The notes under the pieces: model-generated
Seen by the model: the letters and a program-made list of their open reading frames with translations, nothing else
What the model was told of the DNA's origin: nothing
Databases searched by the model: none
Part shown: positions 5,241-53,910 of the stretch, one piece after another
Position numbering within the stretch: the stretch's first letter is position 1
Layout of the letters: each line of letters starts with the position of its first letter
Translations under genes and position numbers: made by a program
Source of the DNA: Holophagaceae bacterium
GTDB lineage: Bacteria; Acidobacteriota; Holophagae; Holophagales; Holophagaceae
Direction of reading: 5' to 3'
Assembly: GCA_016722505.1 (NCBI GenBank)
Contig: JADKJH010000005.1
Span: forward strand, 190,872-254,871
Length of the DNA: 64,000 nucleotides

Positions 5241-8200
5241 TCAACGGGGCACCGGAACAAAGGGGGAGGATTCCCCCAAGTCCCAGTCCAGAGGCGCATC
5301 CGGCGGAAGGGAAGACCTTACCTGGAGCGTTCCGTTCGAGATGAGATCAGGAATGCTCATGGATCGGGTCTCCAGAACCATGTCGGCATCCGCCACTTCC
5401 CCAGGGAATAGACCCACCCAGGCATCCCGTCCAGCCCGCTTTGCCGCATAGAGGCAATGATCCGCCACATCCACAACCCGCTCCCAGGCGAGAGCCTGGG
5501 GCAGTTCCGGTATGAATGGATAGAGCGCGAAACCCGATGAGCAGGTAAGGCGCAATGACTTGCCGTCTCCGATGTCGAAGAGATGAAAAGCGACTTGGGA
5601 GCGGATGCGTTCCACCAGGATGGTGGAGTCCCGGCGGCAGACATTGCGGGCCACGACAAGGAACTCCTCACCTCCCCAACGCACCACGGTATCCGTGTCG
5701 CGGGTGGCTTCCTTCATGATCTCGCCCATCTGCTGAAGCACCTTGTCGCCCGCAGCGTGGCCATGTTCGTCGTTCACGAGCTTGAAGTGGTCGAGGTCCA
5801 CCATGATGAAGAGTAGATCAATGTTCAGGGCCATCCGCTCTTTGCGGGGCGCTTCCAATTCGCGGAAAGCCCGATTCACCAAGGCCACATCCTCGGGCAG
5901 GCACTCCCCGAGAAAACGGCGGTTCCTCAATCCAGTCAGAGGATCCGTCAGGCTCTGGTTACGCAAAGCCTCATTCGCGGATTCGAGCGCGTCATTGGCC
6001 CATTCCATGGCGTCATTCGCCGCCTTCAACTCTTTCGTGCGGGCTGCGACCTGTGCTTCCAGCAACCGGTTCTGCTGTTGGAGGGCGAACATCCGCCAGC
6101 GTACGACCAGTGCGACCAGCCCTGCGGCGCCAAGACCCATGAGCATCCGGAACCACCAGGACTGCCACCAGGCTGGCAGCACTTTGAAATCAAAAGCGGC
6201 GACGGGACCCCAAGCACCCTGCCCTATCCGGGAACACACCTCAAGCCTGTAATGTCCAGGCCCTAATGCTGGGTACCGCGCCTCGCGGGTATCCGTCGGA
6301 TGCCATTCAGATTCCAGCCCCACGAGCCGGACCCTCTGATGCACCGCTTGCTCCCTTGGGAAGCTCAGGCATGCAAAACGGGCTTCCAGCGTATTCGACC
6401 CAAAGGGCACCTCGATTTCTTTCTGTCCAGGCCAAAAAGCCTGTTGCCCCAATCTCAGGGAAGTCAACTCCGTGGGGGGTGGCGCGGAAAGCCCATGATA
6501 TGCCTTCGCATCGAAGCGCGCGAGGCCCGTGCTGGTGCCAATCCAAACATCGCCATTTTCCTCCGGGAAGAAAGCCATGTTGTCGCAGTCCTCCCCAACC
6601 AAACCTTCAGCAACACCAAAATGCTCGATGCCTTCAGGCCTGATCAGATCCACACCCTTTCCGGTTCCGATCCAGATGCCGCCTTTGGCATCCTCGCCCG
6701 TGAGATAGACCATGTCTTCCACCAGCCCTGCGCTGGCATCGAACTGTTTGAGCACTTTCAGCCTGCCTTCTTCGTAGCGGGCAAGAGTCAGGCCGAGCGG
6801 CTCGTTGTAGGAGATCAAGAGGTCGCCGCCCTTGGTTGAAGCGATATAGGCCGCGTGATCCTGCTTGAGTCCATCTTTCATTGTGAACCGCCGCCATCGG
6901 CCATTCTCCAGCATCGCAAGGCCTCGCTCTCCAGGCGCCCAAATCCGCCCGGCAGCATCCTGGTGGACGTCGCTGATGTATTCCGTCGGCAGGCCCTGCG
7001 GAAGCTCCACCCGCTCGAATTTCAAGTTTCCTGGGGTCAACGGCGCCCTGAAGAGCCCCGCTCCATCCGTGCTGGCCCAAAGCACGCCATTTTGGTCGAT
7101 TTTAAGCCTGAAGATGCGTTTCGCGGCTGCATCGTGGCCGAGTTCAAAACGCTGGAGCACCCGCCGTTTCTGGTCGTACCTGAGCACTTCGTTTCCAGGG
7201 ACTCCTGCCATGTACAAGACTCCGTCCGGTCCCTGGACGATGGTGCGGATGACATGCCCCAGAGTACCTGGAATGACCTCCCACCCCGTTGCGATGGATC
7301 GTGCGAGACCATTGTCCGTGCCCACCCAGAGTTGCCGCTCCCGGTCCCTGAAGATTCGCCAGATGACGCTGCTGGGCAACCCGTCCACCTGAGTGTAGAT
7401 ATGCCAGAGGCCACGGCCCAGAAGTCTGTAGACGCCCACAGAGCCAACCCACAGAGAGCCTTCCCGATCCTCCAACGCTGTGCGGCACCAAGTGGTTGGT
7501 AATCCCTCCTTGGCTCCCAAAACGGACCAGGCATCTCCTTCCAGATGGGCTAATCCATGCTGTGTCGGGAGCCAGATATCGCCATGCCGGCCTGTGATCA
7601 GGAAACCCCTGTCGTTGATGACGGAAACGGGCGCGCTGGCCTCGCGAAACCGGGAAGCCCCAGGACCAAGCACCCACAAGCTGTGGGGGGTGCGGGCCCA
7701 GAGACGGCCAGCCCCATCCTCAGCTAGGGAGTCGATCCTCTCTTTGTCCAGGCCCGGAGGAGCTTCGAAAACCCGCCAACTTCCGCCACGGTGGGCCAGA
7801 ACCCGAGACCTGCCATCCCAGTTTGCCACCCACATGATGTCGGATTTCTTCCCCCCTGAGAGCGCGGTCGCCTCGCCTTTTGGCCATCCCGGAGCTTTCG
7901 TGAACCGTCCCGCCGGATCCTGGAAATAGGGGCCATCGTTTGTAGCGGCCCAAAACCCGCCGGGGCCGCTGGCCAGCCCTTCAATGGGAACCATTGGCAG
8001 CCCCTGAGCTGATGCGACCGCCTCGAAAGATTGGCCATTCCACCGCGCCAATCCCCGGCGGGTTCCCACCCAGAGGGTTCCATCAGGGTCTGAATACATG
8101 GCGAGGATATCGCTCGAAGGCAGCCCGTCTTTCACACCGAATGGTTCGAACCGGGATCCGTCATACCTGAAAAGCCCAGCCTCGGTGCCGGCCCAAATGA

Positions 8201-8420
8201 ATCCCCGGCTGTCCTGTGCCAGATGCCAGACAGCCAGGTTGGAAAGCCCCTGGTCCGCATCGTAGGCACGAAAGGTCTGGCGGCCAGGAGGCATTTCGTT
8301 TGAAGAGATAGGTGTCGGAAGAGCCATGAGCCCGCATGCGGACATGACGGCCGCAAAAAACAGGTAGCGGAAGAAAGAGGCCATGATTTCCTGGGAGGTT
8401 TCCACCTCAAGTATCGTCAA
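5241..8420 (-). CDS. Sensor diguanylate cyclase: signal peptide, two-component-regulator propeller (Reg_prop) repeats, Y_Y_Y domain, TM helix, coiled coil, GGDEF domain
   Basis: 1059 aa; N-terminal hydrophobic signal; many WVGT/WIGT propeller repeats; TM WWFRMLMGLGAAGLVALVV; C-terminal GGDEF with intact RWGGEEFLVV active site. Confidence 0.85.
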   Translation of the reverse strand: MTILEVETSQEIMASFFRYLFFAAVMSACGLMALPTPISSNEMPPGRQTFRAYDADQGLSNLAVWHLAQDSRGFIWAGTEAGLFRYDGSRFEPFGVKDGLPSSDILAMYSDPDGTLWVGTRRGLARWNGQSFEAVASAQGLPMVPIEGLASGPGGFWAATNDGPYFQDPAGRFTKAPGWPKGEATALSGGKKSDIMWVANWDGRSRVLAHRGGSWRVFEAPPGLDKERIDSLAEDGAGRLWARTPHSLWVLGPGASRFREASAPVSVINDRGFLITGRHGDIWLPTQHGLAHLEGDAWSVLGAKEGLPTTWCRTALEDREGSLWVGSVGVYRLLGRGLWHIYTQVDGLPSSVIWRIFRDRERQLWVGTDNGLARSIATGWEVIPGTLGHVIRTIVQGPDGVLYMAGVPGNEVLRYDQKRRVLQRFELGHDAAAKRIFRLKIDQNGVLWASTDGAGLFRAPLTPGNLKFERVELPQGLPTEYISDVHQDAAGRIWAPGERGLAMLENGRWRRFTMKDGLKQDHAAYIASTKGGDLLISYNEPLGLTLARYEEGRLKVLKQFDASAGLVEDMVYLTGEDAKGGIWIGTGKGVDLIRPEGIEHFGVAEGLVGEDCDNMAFFPEENGDVWIGTSTGLARFDAKAYHGLSAPPPTELTSLRLGQQAFWPGQKEIEVPFGSNTLEARFACLSFPREQAVHQRVRLVGLESEWHPTDTREARYPALGPGHYRLEVCSRIGQGAWGPVAAFDFKVLPAWWQSWWFRMLMGLGAAGLVALVVRWRMFALQQQNRLLEAQVAARTKELKAANDAMEWANDALESANEALRNQSLTDPLTGLRNRRFLGECLPEDVALVNRAFRELEAPRKERMALNIDLLFIMVDLDHFKLVNDEHGHAAGDKVLQQMGEIMKEATRDTDTVVRWGGEEFLVVARNVCRRDSTILVERIRSQVAFHLFDIGDGKSLRLTCSSGFALYPFIPELPQALAWERVVDVADHCLYAAKRAGRDAWVGLFPGEVADADMVLETRSMSIPDLISNGTLQVRSSLPPDAPLDWDLGESSPFVPVPR

Positions 8421-8474: not shown

Positions 8475-9779
8475 TCAGGCGATTTCAGCGCCCAAAAACT
8501 GAGGTCCAGCCATGGTAACCGTTACATCCACCAACTCGCCAAAGGGCAATATCCGTCCATCTCCGGTTTGGATATGGACGTTTTTCCAATCCCCCGTCCG
8601 CCCCATCCAAAAGCCATCTTTAGCTGGGCTGTGGCTTTCGACCCGCGCCTGCACCGTGCGGCCGACGAACCGCAGATTGCTCTCTTTGGCCAGCTCCAAC
8701 TGCCGTTTTTGAAGCCGCTGCAACCGCCCGGTCTTCACAGAGGCTGGAATGTCATCCTTGAGCCGCAGCGCCGCCGTTCCTGGGCGTGGACTGTAGATGA
8801 AACTGAAGGAAGAGTCGAATTTCACAGTCTCCAGCAGCTTCATGGTGGCTTCAAAGTCTTCATCGGTTTCTCCCGGGAAACCCACGATGAAATCCGTGCT
8901 GAGGCCAAGTTTTACACGGCCATCCCCCAGGTAACCCAGAGACTCCAGATACTGTTCCACCGTGTACTCCCGGAGCATCCGCCGCAGCACCGCATTGGAA
9001 CCGCTCTGTACTGGAAGATGAAGGAATGGCGCTACTTTGGGATTAGTGACAAGGACTTTGGCCAGCTCTTTGGTGAAGTTCATGGGGTGGCTGGTAGTGA
9101 AACGGATCCATTCCAGGCCTTCAACTTCCGAGACTCGCTCCAACAATTCCGCGAAGCTGCAACCGCCACTGAAAGAGTTGACATTCTGGCCAAGCAATTC
9201 CACTTCACGATACCCACTTGCCACCACCCCCCGGACCTCGGCCACGATGTCCTGCCAGGGGCGATTTCGCTCAACCCCGCGGGTGGTGGGAACAATGCAA
9301 TATGTGCAGGCGTGGTTGCAACCTTCAATGATGGTCACAAGGGCTTTTGCGGTGCTTCTACGCCTCGCGGCTTCAGGTGGGAAAAGGTGGTTGTCGGGAT
9401 ATTCCCCGGTATCCATGACGCGTTTTTTGCCCGCCTTGGCTTCTTCCACAAGGCGTGGCAGCTGGTTCAAGGCCATGGTACCCAGCACAAAATCTATATG
9501 CGGGGCCCTCCTGAAAAGCGCAGCCTGTTCCTGCTGGGCCAGACAGCCGGTCACCCCAATGAGAATGTCCCGCTTCTGTTTCTCCTCCCGAAGGCGGCCC
9601 AGCACTGAAAAGACCTTGTGGACAGCCTTTTCGCGAATGGAGCAAGTATTCAAAAGCACCAGATCCGCCTCGCTCGAGGTGCTGACCTGAGTGAAGCCTT
9701 CCTTCAAGAGCAACCCCGACAGCCTTTCACCGTCGTGGTCGTTCATCTGGCATCCCCAGGTTTGGATATGGAACTTCAT
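8475..9779 (-). CDS. miaB: tRNA-2-methylthio-N6-dimethylallyladenosine synthase (radical SAM methylthiotransferase)
   Basis: MKFHIQTWGCQMN MTTase N-terminus, CTYCIVP radical-SAM motif, TRAM C-terminus; 434 aa. Confidence 0.95.
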   Translation of the reverse strand: MKFHIQTWGCQMNDHDGERLSGLLLKEGFTQVSTSSEADLVLLNTCSIREKAVHKVFSVLGRLREEKQKRDILIGVTGCLAQQEQAALFRRAPHIDFVLGTMALNQLPRLVEEAKAGKKRVMDTGEYPDNHLFPPEAARRRSTAKALVTIIEGCNHACTYCIVPTTRGVERNRPWQDIVAEVRGVVASGYREVELLGQNVNSFSGGCSFAELLERVSEVEGLEWIRFTTSHPMNFTKELAKVLVTNPKVAPFLHLPVQSGSNAVLRRMLREYTVEQYLESLGYLGDGRVKLGLSTDFIVGFPGETDEDFEATMKLLETVKFDSSFSFIYSPRPGTAALRLKDDIPASVKTGRLQRLQKRQLELAKESNLRFVGRTVQARVESHSPAKDGFWMGRTGDWKNVHIQTGDGRILPFGELVDVTVTMAGPQFLGAEIA

Positions 9780-10075
9780 AATCGTTCCCTATTCCTGGGA
9801 ATGCCGATGAAGTGGACTACCCCCCGATCACGCAGTCCACTGGACTGCGCTCCCGCTCGCCTCCGGCTCGCGGAGGGGGCCCCGTGGACTACCCCCCGAT
9901 CGCACGGTCCACTGGACCGTGCTCCCGCTCGCCTTCGGCTCGCGGAGGGGGCCCCGTTCTGGCATCCCCAGGTTTGGATATGGAACTTCATGCGCGGTCC
10001 TGACCAAACCTTTAATTCTAAGAGGCGGCCACCTGAAAGTCCTCGGAAAATATAGCGATGGTGGACTTCTGGCAT
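9776..10075 (-). promoter_or_regulatory. miaB leader: upstream ORF that begins with a perfect copy of the first 11 MiaB codons (MKFHIQTWGCQ) and ends in TGA overlapping the miaB ATG (ATGA)
   Basis: 33-bp exact direct repeat 9747..9779 and 9959..9991 (ctggcatccccaggtttggatatggaacttcat) brackets two 72-bp tandem repeats. The reading frame is open from 10075 or 9991 down to TGA at 9776..9778. Confidence 0.45.
9812..9955. repeat. 2 x 72-bp tandem direct repeat in the miaB leader (about 90% identical units)
   Basis: Unit 1 is 9812..9883 and unit 2 is 9884..9955 (gtggactaccccccgatc...cggctcgcggagggggcccc). Each unit contains a small hairpin ctccg-gctcg-cggag. Confidence 0.9.
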
Positions 10076-10121
10076 ATATTTTCAGAGATCAACGCAACCT
10101 GAACTAGCGCACACCCCCTGG

Positions 10122-30846: not shown

Positions 30847-32908
30847 TTGAAAGGAGTCTTCATGGACCTCACCTGGTTCCTTGACCATCCCGGCACCGCC
30901 TTCTTGCTGGCGCTGCTTTCCATCTTCCTGCTGGTGCTGCTCTCGAAATGGATCCGGTACATCCCCAACAACCGCGTAGGCATCGTGGAAAAGCTCATCA
31001 GCGGGAAGGGGTCCGTGAAAACCGGCCTCATCGCGCTTAGGGGGCGAGGCAGGATTCCAGCCTCAGCTCCTCCGCGGCGGCTGGCATTTCCTCATGCCCT
31101 TCCAGTACCGCATCCACAAGATGCCTCTGGTCACGATTCCCCAAGGCAAGATCGGCTACGTCTTCGCACGGGATGGCAAGGACCTCCCGGCCTCCCAGGC
31201 CCTGGCCTCCAATGAGCGCGCGCGGGATTTCCAGGATGTGGAGGCCTTCCTGCAGAACGGCGGCACCAAGGGCCCCCAGCGCATGATCCTCCGCGAAGGC
31301 ATCTACGCCATCAACCTGGTGCAGTTCGTGGTGCTCACCGAGGACCAGATGCTCTACCTGCCCCTGGACCGCAGCGAAGTGGACACCTTCACCAAGATGA
31401 GCGCCGTGATCGCCGAGCGGGGCGGCTACCGCCCCGTGGTCATCAAGGGCACCGACGACATCATCGGCGTCATCACGGTCCACGATGGGCCGAGCCTCCC
31501 GTCCGACGAAATCATCGCGCCCTCGGTGGGTAACGATCCCGCGCATCCCGACACCTACCACAACAATTTCCAGGACCCGGACAAATTCCTGAAGGCGGGA
31601 GGCCTCCGCGGCCGCCAGCTCCAGGTCATCGTGGAAGGCACCTACTACGTGAACCGCCTTTTCGCGACGGTGGAGTCCATCCCCAAGACCGTGGTGGAAG
31701 TGGGCACCGTGGGCGTGGTGGTGAGCTACACCGGCGTCGAGGGCACGGACATGACCGGCGCGGACTACAAGCACGGCGAGCTGGTGGCCGTGGGCACCCG
31801 CGGCGTGTGGAACGATCCATTGCTGCCCGGCAAGTACGCCTTCAACACCTACGCCGGAAAGGTGGTGATGGTGCCCACCACGAACTTCATCCTGAAGTGG
31901 AGCCAATCCGAAGTCGGTGCGCACCGCTACGACGAGAACCTGGCAGAGGTGAGCCTCATCACCAAGGACGCCTTCGAACCCAGCCTGCCGCTGTCGGTGG
32001 TGGTGCACATCGACTACCGCAAGGCGCCGCTCGTCATCCAGCGCTTCGGCGACATCAAACGGCTGGTGGAGCAGACCCTGGATCCCATGGTGGCCGCCTA
32101 CTTCAAGAACATCGGCCAGACCCGCACGCTCATCCAGCTCATCCAGGACCGCAGCGCCATCCAGGACCAGTCCGGCGTCCAGATGCGCGCCAAGTTCGAA
32201 CAGTACAACCTGGAATTGCAGGAAGTCCTGATCGGCACGCCCACCAGCGGAACCCAAGGCGGCCAGATCGAGCAGATCCTCATCCAGCTCCGTTCCCGCC
32301 AGATCGCCAACGAACAGGTGGAGACCTATTCCCGGCAGCAGGGCGCAGCCATCAAGGAGCGCGAACTGCGCGAGGCTGAAGCCAAGGCCAAGCAGCAGAC
32401 CATGCTGACGGAATCGGAGATCTCCATCACCGTGCAGAGCAACCAGGGCAAGGCGGATTACGCCCGCGCCCAGCAGGAGGCCAACCGCATCCAGACCCTC
32501 GCAGGCGCCGAAGCCGAGAAGGTGCGGATCATGGGCGAAGGCGAGGGCAAGCGCATCAAGGCCATCGCCGATGGTGAAGCCGAGCGCGCGGCGCGAGTGG
32601 GCATCGCCCAGGCCATCGCCATCGAGGAGCAGGTGCGCGCCTACGGCGGCCCGCAGTTCCAGCTCACCCAGCAGGTCATGAACCGCTTCGCCGAAGCCAT
32701 CGAAAAGGGCCAGATCGATGTGGTGCCGAAGATCAACATGTCCGGCGGCGGCGCGGGCGGAGGCAATCTTATCGAGAATCTGCTCGGGTTGTTGATGACC
32801 ACGAAGCTAGGCGAGACCGTCGGGGTGGTGGCGCCCACCGAACGCGATCCCGAGGTCCAGGCCATGCGCGATGCGCTGAAGGCGCAAATGAAAAGGCCCA
32901 AGGCGTAA
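30847..32908 (+). CDS. Flotillin / SPFH-domain protein (YqiK/FloA-like). N-terminal membrane anchor (30847..31018) is out of frame with the body (31022..32908) because of an indel in a G5 run
   Basis: N-terminal TM FLLALLSIFLLVLLSKWIRYIPNNRVGIVEKLISGKGSVKTG, then the frame changes at cttagggggcgagg. SPFH domain, long EA-rich coiled coil, Gly-rich tail. Confidence 0.75.
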
Positions 32909-51870: not shown

Positions 51871-53069
51871 ATGCCAATTCTGAATGCCGCAGCGCAAAGG
51901 CCCGTGGTCGCCACCGGGCAGCAGATCGGTGCCGGTTGGACACCTGCGCTTTCCGTGGCCAAGGCCTTGGCGGCTTTGGCCGAAGCCACGCGCCTCGGCA
52001 TGGATGCGGTCTATTGGATGGCGGATGAAGATCACGACCGCGCCGAGGTGGCCACTACGGCGGGGCTTGAAGACGGCAGGTTGGTGCGCCACCGCTTCCG
52101 CTTTGATGCGCCGGAGGGTACCGCCGCAGGCTGGCTGCCCTGGGATACTCCACAGCAACACCAAGCCGAAGCGCTTTGGGGCGAAGCGCCGGCAGCTGTT
52201 GAAAAGACCTTGCGAGGGCACACTTTGGGACTGGGCGGGCCCCTCTGGGAGTTGGGACTGCAGCCCTTCTCACCCACAAATCCCACGCTACGCGAACCCA
52301 TCCAGCCAGAACTGGAACGCTGGCGCAGCCTGGATCTGGAAACCCAGCTTCTCCTATCGGCGGCGCGTCTGGAAGCTGAAGGCGCCCCCCTGCCCCTGGA
52401 CCCGCGGCAACAAGCCGCTTGGTTTTCCCTGGACCCTCAGACTGGCCTTCGCCGCCGCCTGGAACGCGGGGATGTCTGCCCCAAGGGCCACTGGCTCAGC
52501 CCTGGCGCAGCTCTCCGGCCCCTGATGCAGTCCTTGATGTTGCCGGTGGCGGCCGCCGTGCTGGGACCTTCAGAACGGGCCTATTGGCGGCTGACGGAGC
52601 CACTGTGGGAACAGGTGGGACTGAAGGCACCAAGAATCATTGCCAGGCCTTCTGTCTTCGTATTGCCTAAAGGCGCCCATGTGGAAGCTTCAAAACTTTC
52701 GGATCTGGATGCCCTCAGAGATGGCCGCTGGCAGGCATTCTCACATCCAGAAAATCGGCTCCCATCCCAGCGCCTGGGGATTCGGCCCCGGATCCAAGCT
52801 GGGGCCCGGCCATCGGCTCACGGTATGCCAAGGAGCTGGGTCGCACGCGGCATCGTCTGGAACGCCTGGACCAAAGGTGGGTCCGGGATCTTGCGGCGCA
52901 ACAGTTCAACATGGATCCAGAACGGCTTCGGCAGCGGCTCTTCCCCTTTGGCAAAGCCCAGGAGCGGGTACTGCCAGGCCTTTTTTGGCTGCGGGATAAA
53001 CTGCTCATTCGCCGCATATTGGAATCCCTGGACGGAAACAGAAGCCTGATCCTTGTGGAGGAATCATGA
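51871..53069 (+). pseudogene. bshC: Bacillithiol biosynthesis cysteine-adding enzyme BshC (YllA family), C-terminal third shifted into another frame (about 52780-52840)
   Basis: N part VATGQQIGAGW...VYWMADEDHDRAEV (TGQQ/EDHD hallmarks). C-terminal coiled-coil ...YAKELGRTRHRLERLDQRWVRDLAAQQFNMDPERLRQRLFPFGKAQERVLPGLFWLRDKLL found in frame +2, ending TGA 53067..53069. Confidence 0.7.
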
Positions 53070-53179
53070 GCAAGGGCCTCGACCTGTTCATCGGCGAGCA
53101 CCCGGAGCCTGCCGTACCAACATCTTGGCCCTTCCGGCCACGGCCTCGGTGCGCGGGCATTTCAGGGAGGAAGGCATGA
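53066..53179 (+). promoter_or_regulatory. 37-codon upstream ORF derived from a diverged duplicate of the bshB 5' end, ATGA-coupled on both sides (bshC stop / uORF start; uORF stop / bshB start)
   Basis: MSKGLDLFIGEHPE... versus BshB MSHEGLDLLVIGAHPDDAE; about 110-bp degenerate tandem duplication (53060..53175 versus 53168..53280). GGGAGGAAGG RBS precedes the bshB ATG. Confidence 0.4.
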
Positions 53180-53910
53180 GCCACGAAGGTCTCGATCTCC
53201 TTGTCATCGGCGCGCACCCGGACGACGCGGAAGTCCATGTCGGGGGCCTGCTGGCGCTGGCTTCCCTGCACGGCCTGAGGGCTGGAATCCTGGATCTCAC
53301 CAGTGGCGATCTTGGCACCCGGGGCACCGCGGAAACGCGCCGGGCGGAAGCTGCCGCCTCAGCCAGCATTCTCGGCGTCCAGCGCTATGATCTGGGTTTT
53401 CCAGATGGACGGTTTTCTGAAGAAGAGAGCTATCGCTTGCTGCTCATGTCGAAACTGAGGGAATTGAGGCCATCCGTACTCATCCTTCCGGCGCCAGAGG
53501 ATCGCCACCCAGACCATCGGCGAGCCTACCGTCTAGGCCGCGAAGCGGCGTATTACGCGGGTCTGAAAAATTATCCCTGCCCAGGAGACCCCTGGCGGCC
53601 CAAGGCTATCGCGTGGATGGCTGGAGAGAACCCGGGCCAGCCTGACCTTGTGGTGGACGTCAGCGAAGTTTGGGCCGCCCGGATGGCGGCCTTCGACGCA
53701 TTCGGCAGCCAGTTCTCCGCAGACCCTAGCGCCTCCACTCGCATCGCGCATCCCGCTTTCCGGCGGGGCGTAGAAGGGCGCGCCATGCACTACGCATCGT
53801 TTCTTCTCTGCAATTGGGCCGAAGCCCTTTGGTGCGAAAAACCCGTGCCTCCCGCGCTGCTGAACCTGCTTGAGCGATTGAACCAGCCTGTTCCGGGCAG
53901 CAGAACGTGA
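53176..53910 (+). CDS. bshB: Bacillithiol biosynthesis deacetylase BshB (PIG-L/LmbE family)
   Basis: LLVIGAHPDDAE, HPDH motifs of LmbE-like deacetylases; adjacent to bshC. ORF finder extends upstream to 53053 via TTG. Confidence 0.8.
   Translation: MSHEGLDLLVIGAHPDDAEVHVGGLLALASLHGLRAGILDLTSGDLGTRGTAETRRAEAAASASILGVQRYDLGFPDGRFSEEESYRLLLMSKLRELRPSVLILPAPEDRHPDHRRAYRLGREAAYYAGLKNYPCPGDPWRPKAIAWMAGENPGQPDLVVDVSEVWAARMAAFDAFGSQFSADPSASTRIAHPAFRRGVEGRAMHYASFLLCNWAEALWCEKPVPPALLNLLERLNQPVPGSRT

Follow-up and report, generated by a model that had tools for sequence, protein, structure and literature searches.

The tRNA-modification gene miaB carries its own start twice in a 64-kb stretch of a Holophagaceae genome (64,000 nucleotides (nt) of contig JADKJH010000005.1; hereafter the window, meaning the whole stretch that was analysed). 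The first 34 nt of the gene are repeated exactly at a spacing of 212 nt upstream, and the two copies are separated by an insert of 178 nt, which contains two tandem units of a 72-nt structured RNA. Comparison with related genomes shows that an insertion accompanied by a duplication of at least 34 nt of miaB occurred in the ancestor of a Holophagaceae clade. With a probability of roughly 0.6, we read this insertion as a retained, functional leader that makes MiaB synthesis depend on translation of an upstream open reading frame (uORF), which starts in the distal copy and ends at the present start of miaB.

Organization of the miaB leader

On the minus strand, A1 (ATGAAGTTCCATATCCAAACCTGGGGATGCCAGA, the distal copy of miaB nt 1-34) is followed by the dinucleotide AC, the 72-nt units and a 32-nt tail, and then by the proximal copy (A2), from which the frame of MiaB continues. 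Within the tail, the leading 18 nt (A', TTCATCGGCATYCCCAGG) reproduce miaB nt 20-38 as its reverse complement, with one base missing. The initial annotation of the window had reported an exact repeat of 33 bp, which is real and is 34 nt long, and had placed 32 bp, two 72-bp units and 3 bp between the copies; on the plus strand, the 32 nt (9780-9811) and the two units are indeed found in this order, and the last spacer is 2 nt (9956-9957). Its account of the uORF, which opens with MKFHIQTWGCQ, passes through both units with 24 codons each and closes with a TGA that overlaps the miaB ATG as ATGA, is borne out. The two units are 92% identical to each other (Tandem Repeats Finder period 72, score 250), and five of the six differences between them are compensatory changes in a hairpin designated P3. 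The 34-nt repeat is the sole exact direct repeat of at least 23 nt within 1 kb in the window, and a BLAST self-comparison of the window found repeats of gene starts only at miaB and at bshB. Two such cases in one window had been pointed out before, and the observation is sound; the bshB case is treated separately below.

Recurrence in relatives, empty site and age

Leaders were compared among seven assemblies of six species, namely the window and the related loci L006, L014, L015, L016, L017 and L026/L027. The arrangement recurs in all six of the further independent assemblies, which represent five other species, and the MiaB proteins of these relatives are, where measured, 89-94% identical to that of the window, to which no exact sequence match is on record. 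By its MiaB, the window falls within Holophagaceae (Acidobacteriota), close to Geothrix. Since members of the clade differ at 26-42% of third codon positions, the carriers are separate species and the insertion is older than their split. Every carrier has both start copies, AC, one unit (L006, L015, L026/L027) or two units (window, L014, L016, L017) and the tail, with an ATG-to-ATG spacing of exactly 140 or 212 nt. Unit length never departs from 72 nt in the eleven miaB units, and the tail has 32 nt throughout, in spite of just 60.5% conservation over its final 14 nt. Because of these fixed lengths, a change in unit number never breaks the frame of the uORF. Indeed, the uORF is open in seven of seven assemblies, has 47 or 71 codons depending on unit number, and stops 0-2 nt from the miaB ATG. 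The ATGA overlap, which had been put forward as the defining feature, is found in six of the seven; the exception is L016, where a TAA ending 2 nt short of the ATG closes the uORF. Moreover, the A following the ATG is set by the second codon of miaB (Lys) and is present also in L018, a relative without the insert, so that the overlap does not define the arrangement.

L018 (MiaB 79% identical) provides the empty site: there is no duplication in this locus, the upstream neighbour is the same MshEN-domain gene (conserved synteny), and both miaB repeats of the filled sites align to one single-copy target. Related miaB leaders had been named as a check on the duplication, which they bear out in six assemblies and lack in L018. 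A simple tandem duplication was rejected at miaB and at bshB, where the sequence after the distal copy is unrelated to that after the proximal copy. Recurrent slippage, raised as a possible origin in the initial annotation, is contradicted by the inserts, which are not copies of adjacent sequence. They are 59-178 nt long and non-coding, and no transposase, integrase or other mobility gene lies in or adjoining them; in the sequence compared, no donor was found for either the miaB or the bshB insert. As judged from its filled and empty sites, the miaB event is an insertion with long target duplication.

Short-read assemblies do break at repeats this long, so the duplication itself could be suspected of being an artefact of assembly or collapse. 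Short-read contigs L023 and L024 end at miaB nt 5, and scaffold L025 (~1365-1515) has an N-gap directly upstream of miaB. Several orthologues are annotated with 423 instead of 434 amino acids (aa) because assemblies break at the duplicated start, and these 423-aa calls are 11 residues short and without the conserved Cys of the N-terminal cluster motif. Against an artefact, the same miaB leader structure is seen in seven assemblies that are independent and come from different studies, and the bshB arrangement is present in two further assemblies (L032, L033); this concern of the initial annotation is thereby excluded. The identical 34-nt segments could alternatively serve as take-off and landing sites for programmed hopping of ribosomes from the distal to the proximal copy. 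In the bypass of phage T4 gene 60, a stop codon stands right after the take-off codon and the gap is ~50 nt. At miaB, the frame after A1 reads on without a stop (AAC GGG GCC), the gap measures 106-178 nt, and an ordinary coupling route is available; a bypass of the gene 60 type was rejected on these grounds. Both artefact and hopping are scarcely credible.

A 72-nt RNA module under selection

Each unit is predicted to fold into a three-way junction of -42 to -44 kcal/mol, in which P1 closes the unit and P2 and P3 form hairpins. P1 consists of the paired unit ends (GGGGCCCCCU / GGGGGGUAGUCC) with G.U pairs and a 2-nt bulge, and is mismatched on the opposite strand. Since three invariant G.U pairs of P1 become C.A mismatches there, the fold belongs to the mRNA-sense strand; the z-scores of the sense-strand folds are -3.2 and -4.3, and those of the antisense folds are -1.8 and -2.6. 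When 12 units are aligned, pairing holds in 97.9% of cells, compared with 33-50% for slid 3' partners, and both members have changed in eight pairs; in 500 shuffles, the observed values were never attained. The GA of J2/3, the GAUC of J3/1 and a GA/GA internal loop in P2 are invariant, and they are kept also in the divergent unit of locus L013, described below.

Identity across the six species is 92% for the units, 94.5% for A1 and 89% for A', against a neutral level that was taken as ~60-65% from the linker in the tail (60.5%) and nearby third codon positions (65%). These comparisons show that the module, A1 and A' are under selection. Searches of Rfam 15 gave no match for the module even at E <= 10 and none at the gathering threshold in the window, and the only match on 9700-10120 was a chance one to CRISPR-DR58 (E = 5.2). 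From these searches, the 72-nt RNA motif looks new. A tRNA/tmRNA scan of the window found none, and the length of 72 nt does not point to a tRNA. Probably, the one or two GC-rich modules within the uORF set or modulate how many ribosomes pass.

Concerted evolution of the two start copies

Two synonymous sites of the 34-nt segment are polymorphic (AAG/AAA and CAA/CAG), and all four combinations occur among the species. A1 and A2 agree at both sites in five of the six species, the exception concerning one site, and only 8 of 720 permutations match this agreement as well. Distances between miaB genes group L017, L026 and L015, yet these differ at site 18, which means that changes arose in parallel in both copies. 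Sites 6 and 18 lie outside the pairing of A'. In L015, similarity between the copies reaches upstream of the ATG, and units within one genome share lineage-specific changes. We infer from these patterns that gene conversion between the 34-nt repeats is the simplest explanation of the likeness of the copies. Because recombination between the repeats could delete the insert, which is yet kept in six species, selection probably retains it.

Start signals, the A' hairpin and the proposed coupling

The distal copy is preceded by an AGGA that resembles a Shine-Dalgarno (SD) sequence; variants are AGGG in L016 and AAGG in L017, and L015 has two AGGAs. Further upstream, 23 nt from the distal ATG, an invariant TAGAAT resembles a -10 hexamer. 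The assignment of a promoter is based solely on this hexamer, since a scan for consensus sigma-70 sites found no full promoter in the miaB leader. The SD of the proximal copy is weak and variable across species. To judge from these signals, the AGGA appears to be the original ribosome-binding site of miaB and the distal ATG its original initiation site.

At the proximal copy, A' is predicted to pair with codons 7-13 of miaB in the minimum-energy fold of every species (-26 to -35 kcal/mol, z = -4.0 to -6.7). The predicted hairpin has an 18-bp stem, whose 5' arm lies within the uORF, and a loop of ~32 nt that encloses the proximal SD-like sequence and the miaB ATG. The only common variant of A', T/C, swaps a U.G pair for a C-G pair. 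Third positions of miaB codons 1-11 (9746-9779) are 90% conserved versus 65% for codons 13-53, an added constraint in keeping with A' pairing, conversion with the distal copy, or both.

In the mechanism that we propose, the native promoter, SD and ATG, now at the distal copy, would open a uORF of 47 or 71 codons that leads through the module(s) and A' and ends on the miaB ATG or 2 nt before. Pairing of A' with miaB would close off the proximal SD and ATG, and free 30S subunits should initiate poorly there because both are enclosed by the 18-bp stem. Ribosomes translating the uORF would melt the stem and then terminate at the start codon, and MiaB would be made by RNA unfolding and/or termination-reinitiation. 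Probably, MiaB is now made only by ribosomes that have first read the upstream frame, and translational coupling at miaB appears well founded as a model. The suggestion of a coupling or leader design in the initial annotation thus holds for miaB, where the uORF, the position of its stop and the predicted ATG hairpin are conserved, and fails for bshB, which is not a conserved design.

Several points weigh against this reading. The hairpin, the promoter position and translation of the uORF are predicted; constraint on the frame of the uORF and on the structure of the RNA cannot be told apart cleanly; by chance, one unit length in three is divisible by three anyway; and the ATGA overlap is partly imposed by the conserved second codon of miaB. 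Gene conversion is deduced from two polymorphic sites in six species (p about 0.01). The model accounts neither for what the module does nor for where A' came from, nor for the enzymology behind the insertion. Furthermore, co-transcriptional pairing of A1 with A' would keep the real ATG open without coupling.

The last point leads to a different role for A1, that of an anti-sequestor: once transcribed, A' would pair with A1, the modules juxtaposing both, so that the real SD and ATG stay free for direct initiation and the uORF is unneeded, and ribosomes or factors that disturb A1 would move A' onto A2 and switch miaB off. An A1:A' duplex of 12 bp (-22 to -28 kcal/mol) is predicted in every species, P1 brings A1 and A' side by side, and the 3' half of A1 would have a selective reason to stay identical to A2. 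However, the A':A2 pairing is ~6-9 kcal/mol stronger in all species and is present in every minimum-energy fold, the proximal SD is weak in several species, and the conserved frame, the invariant 32-nt tail, the placement of the stop and the co-variation at sites 6 and 18, outside the pairing, are all unaccounted for. We consider an anti-sequestor quite unlikely, and coupling through the uORF remains our preferred reading.

Copies elsewhere and the L013 insertion

A covariance model built from 12 units recovers the known units at 78-104 bits and nothing else in 137 kb. A scan for exact 18-mers in one genome per species (185,579) gave 13 matches, about the chance expectation, among which L006 (at miaB) and L013 are real; a gapped-pattern scan of metagenomes gave one miaB leader and nothing else; and exhaustive HMMER searches with the antisense ORF gave only further miaB leaders (P0241, P0242) and unrelated repetitive proteins. 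By these scans, the unit is found at one locus per genome and in one clade. An 18-mer scan of viral contigs gave four matches, all of them one chance word inside one phage gene, and blastn of the insert against annotated plasmids and phages gave no match. Six-frame peptides of the unit had no match at E <= 10 among 5.8 billion proteins, a result that is uninformative because gene callers skip ORFs over the units. P0242 is an antisense ORF from a divergent miaB locus, with 50% identity over the part antisense to miaB, and its end, WGPTSRSPMD, resembles the antisense translation of the unit, WTTPRSRSPLD. From P0242, a degenerate form of the leader may exist outside the clade with MiaB at least 84% identical.

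The unit of L013, in Holophagaceae UBA1801, is an 85-nt relative with identical ends, a larger P2 and a wholly different yet paired P3. Alone, it is predicted to fold into the same three-way junction, and it is preceded by AC, as at miaB. The two genes around it share one orientation, to which the unit is antisense, and downstream on the strand of the unit there is no gene. A direct repeat of 21 nt, the copies of which differ by two mismatches, borders it on both sides (alignment score 32 versus a shuffle maximum of 22). Both copies of this repeat encode EWNRWS-stop, the end of the upstream gene, both mismatches are synonymous, and the GTG of the downstream gene follows 1 nt after the second copy. 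While the miaB units lie inside the uORF and have 72 nt, the 85-nt unit of L013 is outside any reading frame. It follows that a same-ended element appears to have come into two unrelated places, in both instances duplicating a long target and sparing the genes on either side. These are the only two independent unit loci known; no empty site for L013 turned up in the sequences compared, and its 21-nt duplication is below the 30-bp criterion of PMC2853133.

Tentatively, and still on the unlikely side, the 72-85-nt module with the ends AC-GGGGCCCC...GUAGUCCAC may be a tiny, strand-specific mobile element that travels as one piece, enters at the borders of genes with long duplications of variable size (21 and at least 34 nt), has no enzyme of its own and was domesticated at miaB as a control module for translation, along with the inverted copy of the gene start; its mobility would possibly proceed through an RNA or single-stranded intermediate. 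If true, this would be a previously unrecognised kind of very small mobile element.

A sensor RNA would account for several of the same features. As a riboswitch-like or protein-binding RNA, the single or tandem module would control the miaB operon, possibly including the GGDEF gene 54 nt downstream, with A1, A' and A2 as expression platform and the uORF as an incidental feature or as part of the read-out. Its stems co-vary, the nucleotides of junction and internal loop are invariant even in the divergent L013 unit, conservation is strong, the orientation is sense in the 5' leader in all miaB cases with one or two copies, as in tandem riboswitches, and the segment directly after the module has two alternative pairing partners. 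On the other hand, no Rfam family matches, the L013 copy is antisense to both flanking genes, the distribution is very narrow, the module lies inside a reading frame that is conserved, and the genomic context offers no ligand or binding partner. A sensor RNA is therefore judged unlikely.

The bshB case

At bshB, for which the initial annotation had claimed the same architecture, there is a real duplication with a uORF (53066-53179) that ends as ATGA on the bshB ATG (53176). The duplication is degenerate, however, covering ~57 nt at ~75-80% identity with three indels (local alignment 44 versus a shuffle maximum of 26). It is present in both of the independent assemblies mentioned above, which belong to a strain 99.3% identical, and the site is empty in L029/L030 (a closer relative, BshB 89%) and in the outgroup L031 (77%), where the bshC stop overlaps the bshB start as GTGA or ATGA. 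L028 (1201-2004, GCA_016720465.1) and L016 belong to one genome; at an identical junction (CCRGA|GCCTGCC), L028 has a homologous insert that aligns end to end with that of the window. In L028, the arrangement is altered: the proximal ATG is lost, and BshB is called as a 267-aa fusion that starts at an out-of-frame ATG in the distal copy and reads the C-rich insert in frame as a proline-rich extension. The two copies in L028 are 35/35 identical, which again suggests conversion.

The bshB leader shows no excess structure (z = +0.98), no 72-nt unit and little conservation of the insert. An inverted copy of the target in the bshB insert was considered and rejected, as an 8-bp GC-rich complement occurs in the window only and is not kept in L028. 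On these comparisons, bshB is the same kind of mutation as miaB, resolved differently in each lineage, and not a conserved leader design.

The bshB insertion bears on the possibility that the miaB insert, too, is a selfish or accidental one, of the kind of a MITE (a miniature transposable element with inverted repeats) or mere filler, which was tolerated as the duplication and the uORF stop preserved miaB expression, and whose conservation reflects rescue only. A related unit with the same ends (AC-GGGGCCCC...GTAGTCCAC) stands at an unrelated locus with a 21-nt duplication sparing both genes, the insertion at bshB, in these same genomes, is plainly filler without function, and the mycobacterial repeats discussed below have been interpreted likewise (PMC12548453). 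Rescue needs no particular fold, yet the stems have undergone compensatory changes and the units are 92% conserved versus ~60-65% at neutral sites. Moreover, the same need for rescue bears on the bshB insert, whose sequence has drifted freely and which one lineage has lost; six species have kept the miaB insert although perfect 34-nt repeats allow its deletion, and the module is not multi-copy. This explanation appears doubtful, and a retained leader that couples miaB to its uORF is preferred.

Table 1. Positions of the features of the miaB and bshB leaders in the window.
Feature	Position	Strand	Evidence or remark
miaB coding sequence	8475..9779	-	434 aa; UPF0004, Radical_SAM and TRAM domains seen in homologues
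A2, proximal copy, true first 34 nt of miaB	9746..9779	-	Continuous with the 434-aa MiaB ORF
miaB nt 20-38 (CCTGGGGATGCCAGATGAA), 3' arm of the predicted A'-A2 hairpin	9742..9760	-	z = -6.7 in the window
14-nt linker, weak and variable SD-like purine run	9780..9793	-	60.5% identity, the sole fast-evolving segment; length invariant
A' (TTCATCGGCATTCCCAGG), inverted copy of miaB nt 20-38 minus one base	9794..9811	-	89% conserved
Unit 2, 72-nt three-way-junction RNA	9812..9883	-	Fold, covariation, covariance model
Unit 1, promoter-proximal 72-nt three-way-junction RNA	9884..9955	-	-43.9 kcal/mol, z = -4.25; covariance model 102.9 bits
AC dinucleotide between A1 and unit 1	9956..9957	-	Also precedes the L013 unit
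A1, distal copy of miaB nt 1-34, now the uORF start	9958..9991	-	Exact repeat; 94.5% conserved
uORF, 71 codons	9776..9991	-	MKFHIQTWGCQ + 2 x 24 unit codons + FIGIPRNRERL; ATG at 9991-9989, TGA at 9778-9776 overlapping miaB ATG at 9779-9777
AGGA, SD-like, 6 nt 5' of distal ATG	9998..10001	-	Exact in 4/7 assemblies (window, L006, L014, L026)
TAGAAT, -10-like hexamer	10015..10020	-	Invariant in six species amid poorly conserved intergenic DNA
bshB distal copy (SD, ATG, ~40 nt)	53057..53106	+	Continuous with the end of bshC, whose stop overlaps this ATG; original context
bshB insert, 59 nt, unstructured	53107..53165	+	Homologous to the L028 insert
bshB proximal copy (SD and true bshB start, 53176)	53166..53222	+	Alignment

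Neighbouring genes and other observations

The listed neighbours of miaB and bshB are an MshEN-domain gene, feoB, a GGDEF gene, bshC, a PF01171 (ATP_bind_3) gene and ftsH. In the window, a large regulatory-propeller/GGDEF gene (5241-8420, minus strand) lies 54 nt downstream of miaB on the same strand, and in the related loci L015-L017 and L025-L027 the GGDEF gene follows miaB by ~55-130 nt, again on the same strand. Downstream of miaB, L018 has different neighbours on the opposite strand.

Compared with L033 (251 kb) and the Logan read assembly L032, bshC of the window (51871-53069) is without one G of a G-run at ~52775. The missing G splits bshC, which has 399 aa in the sister strain, into two frames, and represents either a homopolymer sequencing error or a real pseudogene. 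The 9-mer TTCATCGGC occurs at 9803-9811, at the start of the miaB tail, and at 53087-53095, in the duplicated segment of bshB. As a shared signal it was rejected: the window has four copies versus 1.06 expected, 4% of shuffles reach this number, and it is probably a common word. A weak direct repeat at 32477-32584 (copies at 32477 and 32543) was likewise rejected as a third case, being 42 nt long with 76% identity and a spacing of 66, internal to a 604-aa ORF (31094-32908).

Significance

The miaB leader offers a natural, species-conserved example of a gene surviving an insertion at its start codon: the old expression signals and an intact gene are both preserved through the long target duplication, and translational coupling would reconnect the two. 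It also provides a candidate new structured RNA motif with good covariation, absent from Rfam and located ahead of a tRNA-modification gene, a position in which its effect on translation can be addressed directly with reporter fusions. On the practical side, the duplicated start breaks short-read assemblies and leads to MiaB calls that are 11 residues short in related genomes. The parts most worth pursuing are the 72-nt RNA motif and its apparent insertion with long target duplications.

Comparison with known systems

Insertion with long target duplication has been named as a class of mutation (Furuta et al. 2010, PMC2853133; PMC3457768). The cases here resemble it in their filled and empty sites, repeats of more than 30 bp with varying length (34 nt at miaB; at bshB ~57 nt in the window and 35 nt exact in L028), and absence of a transposase or integrase. 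The classical cases carry kilobase-sized restriction-modification genes (PMC2853133), whereas the inserts here have 59-178 nt and one of them is a conserved, structured RNA module that has fixed ends and recurs at a second locus. According to Lim et al. 2012 (PMC3457768), who described a 21-nt insert of unknown origin between 270-nt duplicates, the class had not yet been recognised for short DNAs.

Long duplications are also made by certain insertion sequences (IS): 19-26 bp are given for IS1630, and 8-514 bp for IS1549 and IS1634, in the accounts of PMC2853133 and PMC2266710. Since their duplications are long and variable, a non-autonomous derivative could give the miaB pattern, but the miaB insert is without a nearby transposase, clear terminal inverted repeats or a multi-copy state, and no related IS was recognised. 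Rickettsia palindromic elements are multi-copy and fused in frame into host proteins (PMC10969869). Together with MITEs, they resemble the miaB module as small structured repeats in or beside genes with the reading frame kept open. The miaB element, in contrast, lies in a separate uORF and leaves the MiaB protein unchanged, and it differs from MITEs, which have short fixed duplications and many copies, in its duplications of 21 and 34 nt and its single locus per genome.

For coupled genes, models of RNA unfolding and of reinitiation have been documented in phage f1 VII/IX, MS2 coat-lysis and rpmI-rplT (PMC12548453). As in these, the downstream start at miaB lies in a hairpin, here a predicted one, that is crossed by ribosomes of the upstream ORF, and stop and start overlap (-4) or are a few nt apart. 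The upstream ORF of miaB, however, is not a gene but a fossil of the gene's own start fused to an insert, and the arm that sequesters the start repeats codons 7-13 of the gene itself in inverted form.

The MIRUs (mycobacterial interspersed repetitive units), as they are portrayed in PMC12548453 and PMC3184786, come closest. They are small GC-rich units (40-100 bp) with internal inverted repeats, arranged in tandem arrays of varying copy number. They sit at start codons and are co-transcribed with the flanking genes, and their internal ORF ends on the downstream start with a -4 nt overlap (PMC12548453, citing Supply 1997; PMC3184786), a coupling that the account in PMC12548453 interprets as making the insertion harmless. 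There are ~40-50 dispersed copies per genome, with tetranucleotide direct repeats only (PMC12548453, PMC3184786). The miaB leader shares with them tandem units, here of 72 nt, of varying number and a co-oriented ORF that ends on or near a start. It differs in that its module occupies one locus per genome in the scans of species genomes, metagenomes and 137 kb, instead of being dispersed, and in that the direct repeats are 34 nt at miaB and 21 nt at L013, not tetranucleotides. A co-varying three-way junction, an inverted start copy that sequesters the ATG and start copies that evolve in concert are features of miaB that do not figure in these accounts of MIRUs. The phylum is another one, and relatedness in sequence is not expected; MIRU-like solutions exist outside mycobacteria. 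The MIRU is the closest functional analogue of the miaB leader. The new class that the initial annotation had taken to be undescribed reduces to an insertion with long target duplication plus MIRU-like coupled repeats, because both have already been described, the former in PMC2853133 and PMC3457768 and the latter in the portrayals cited above.

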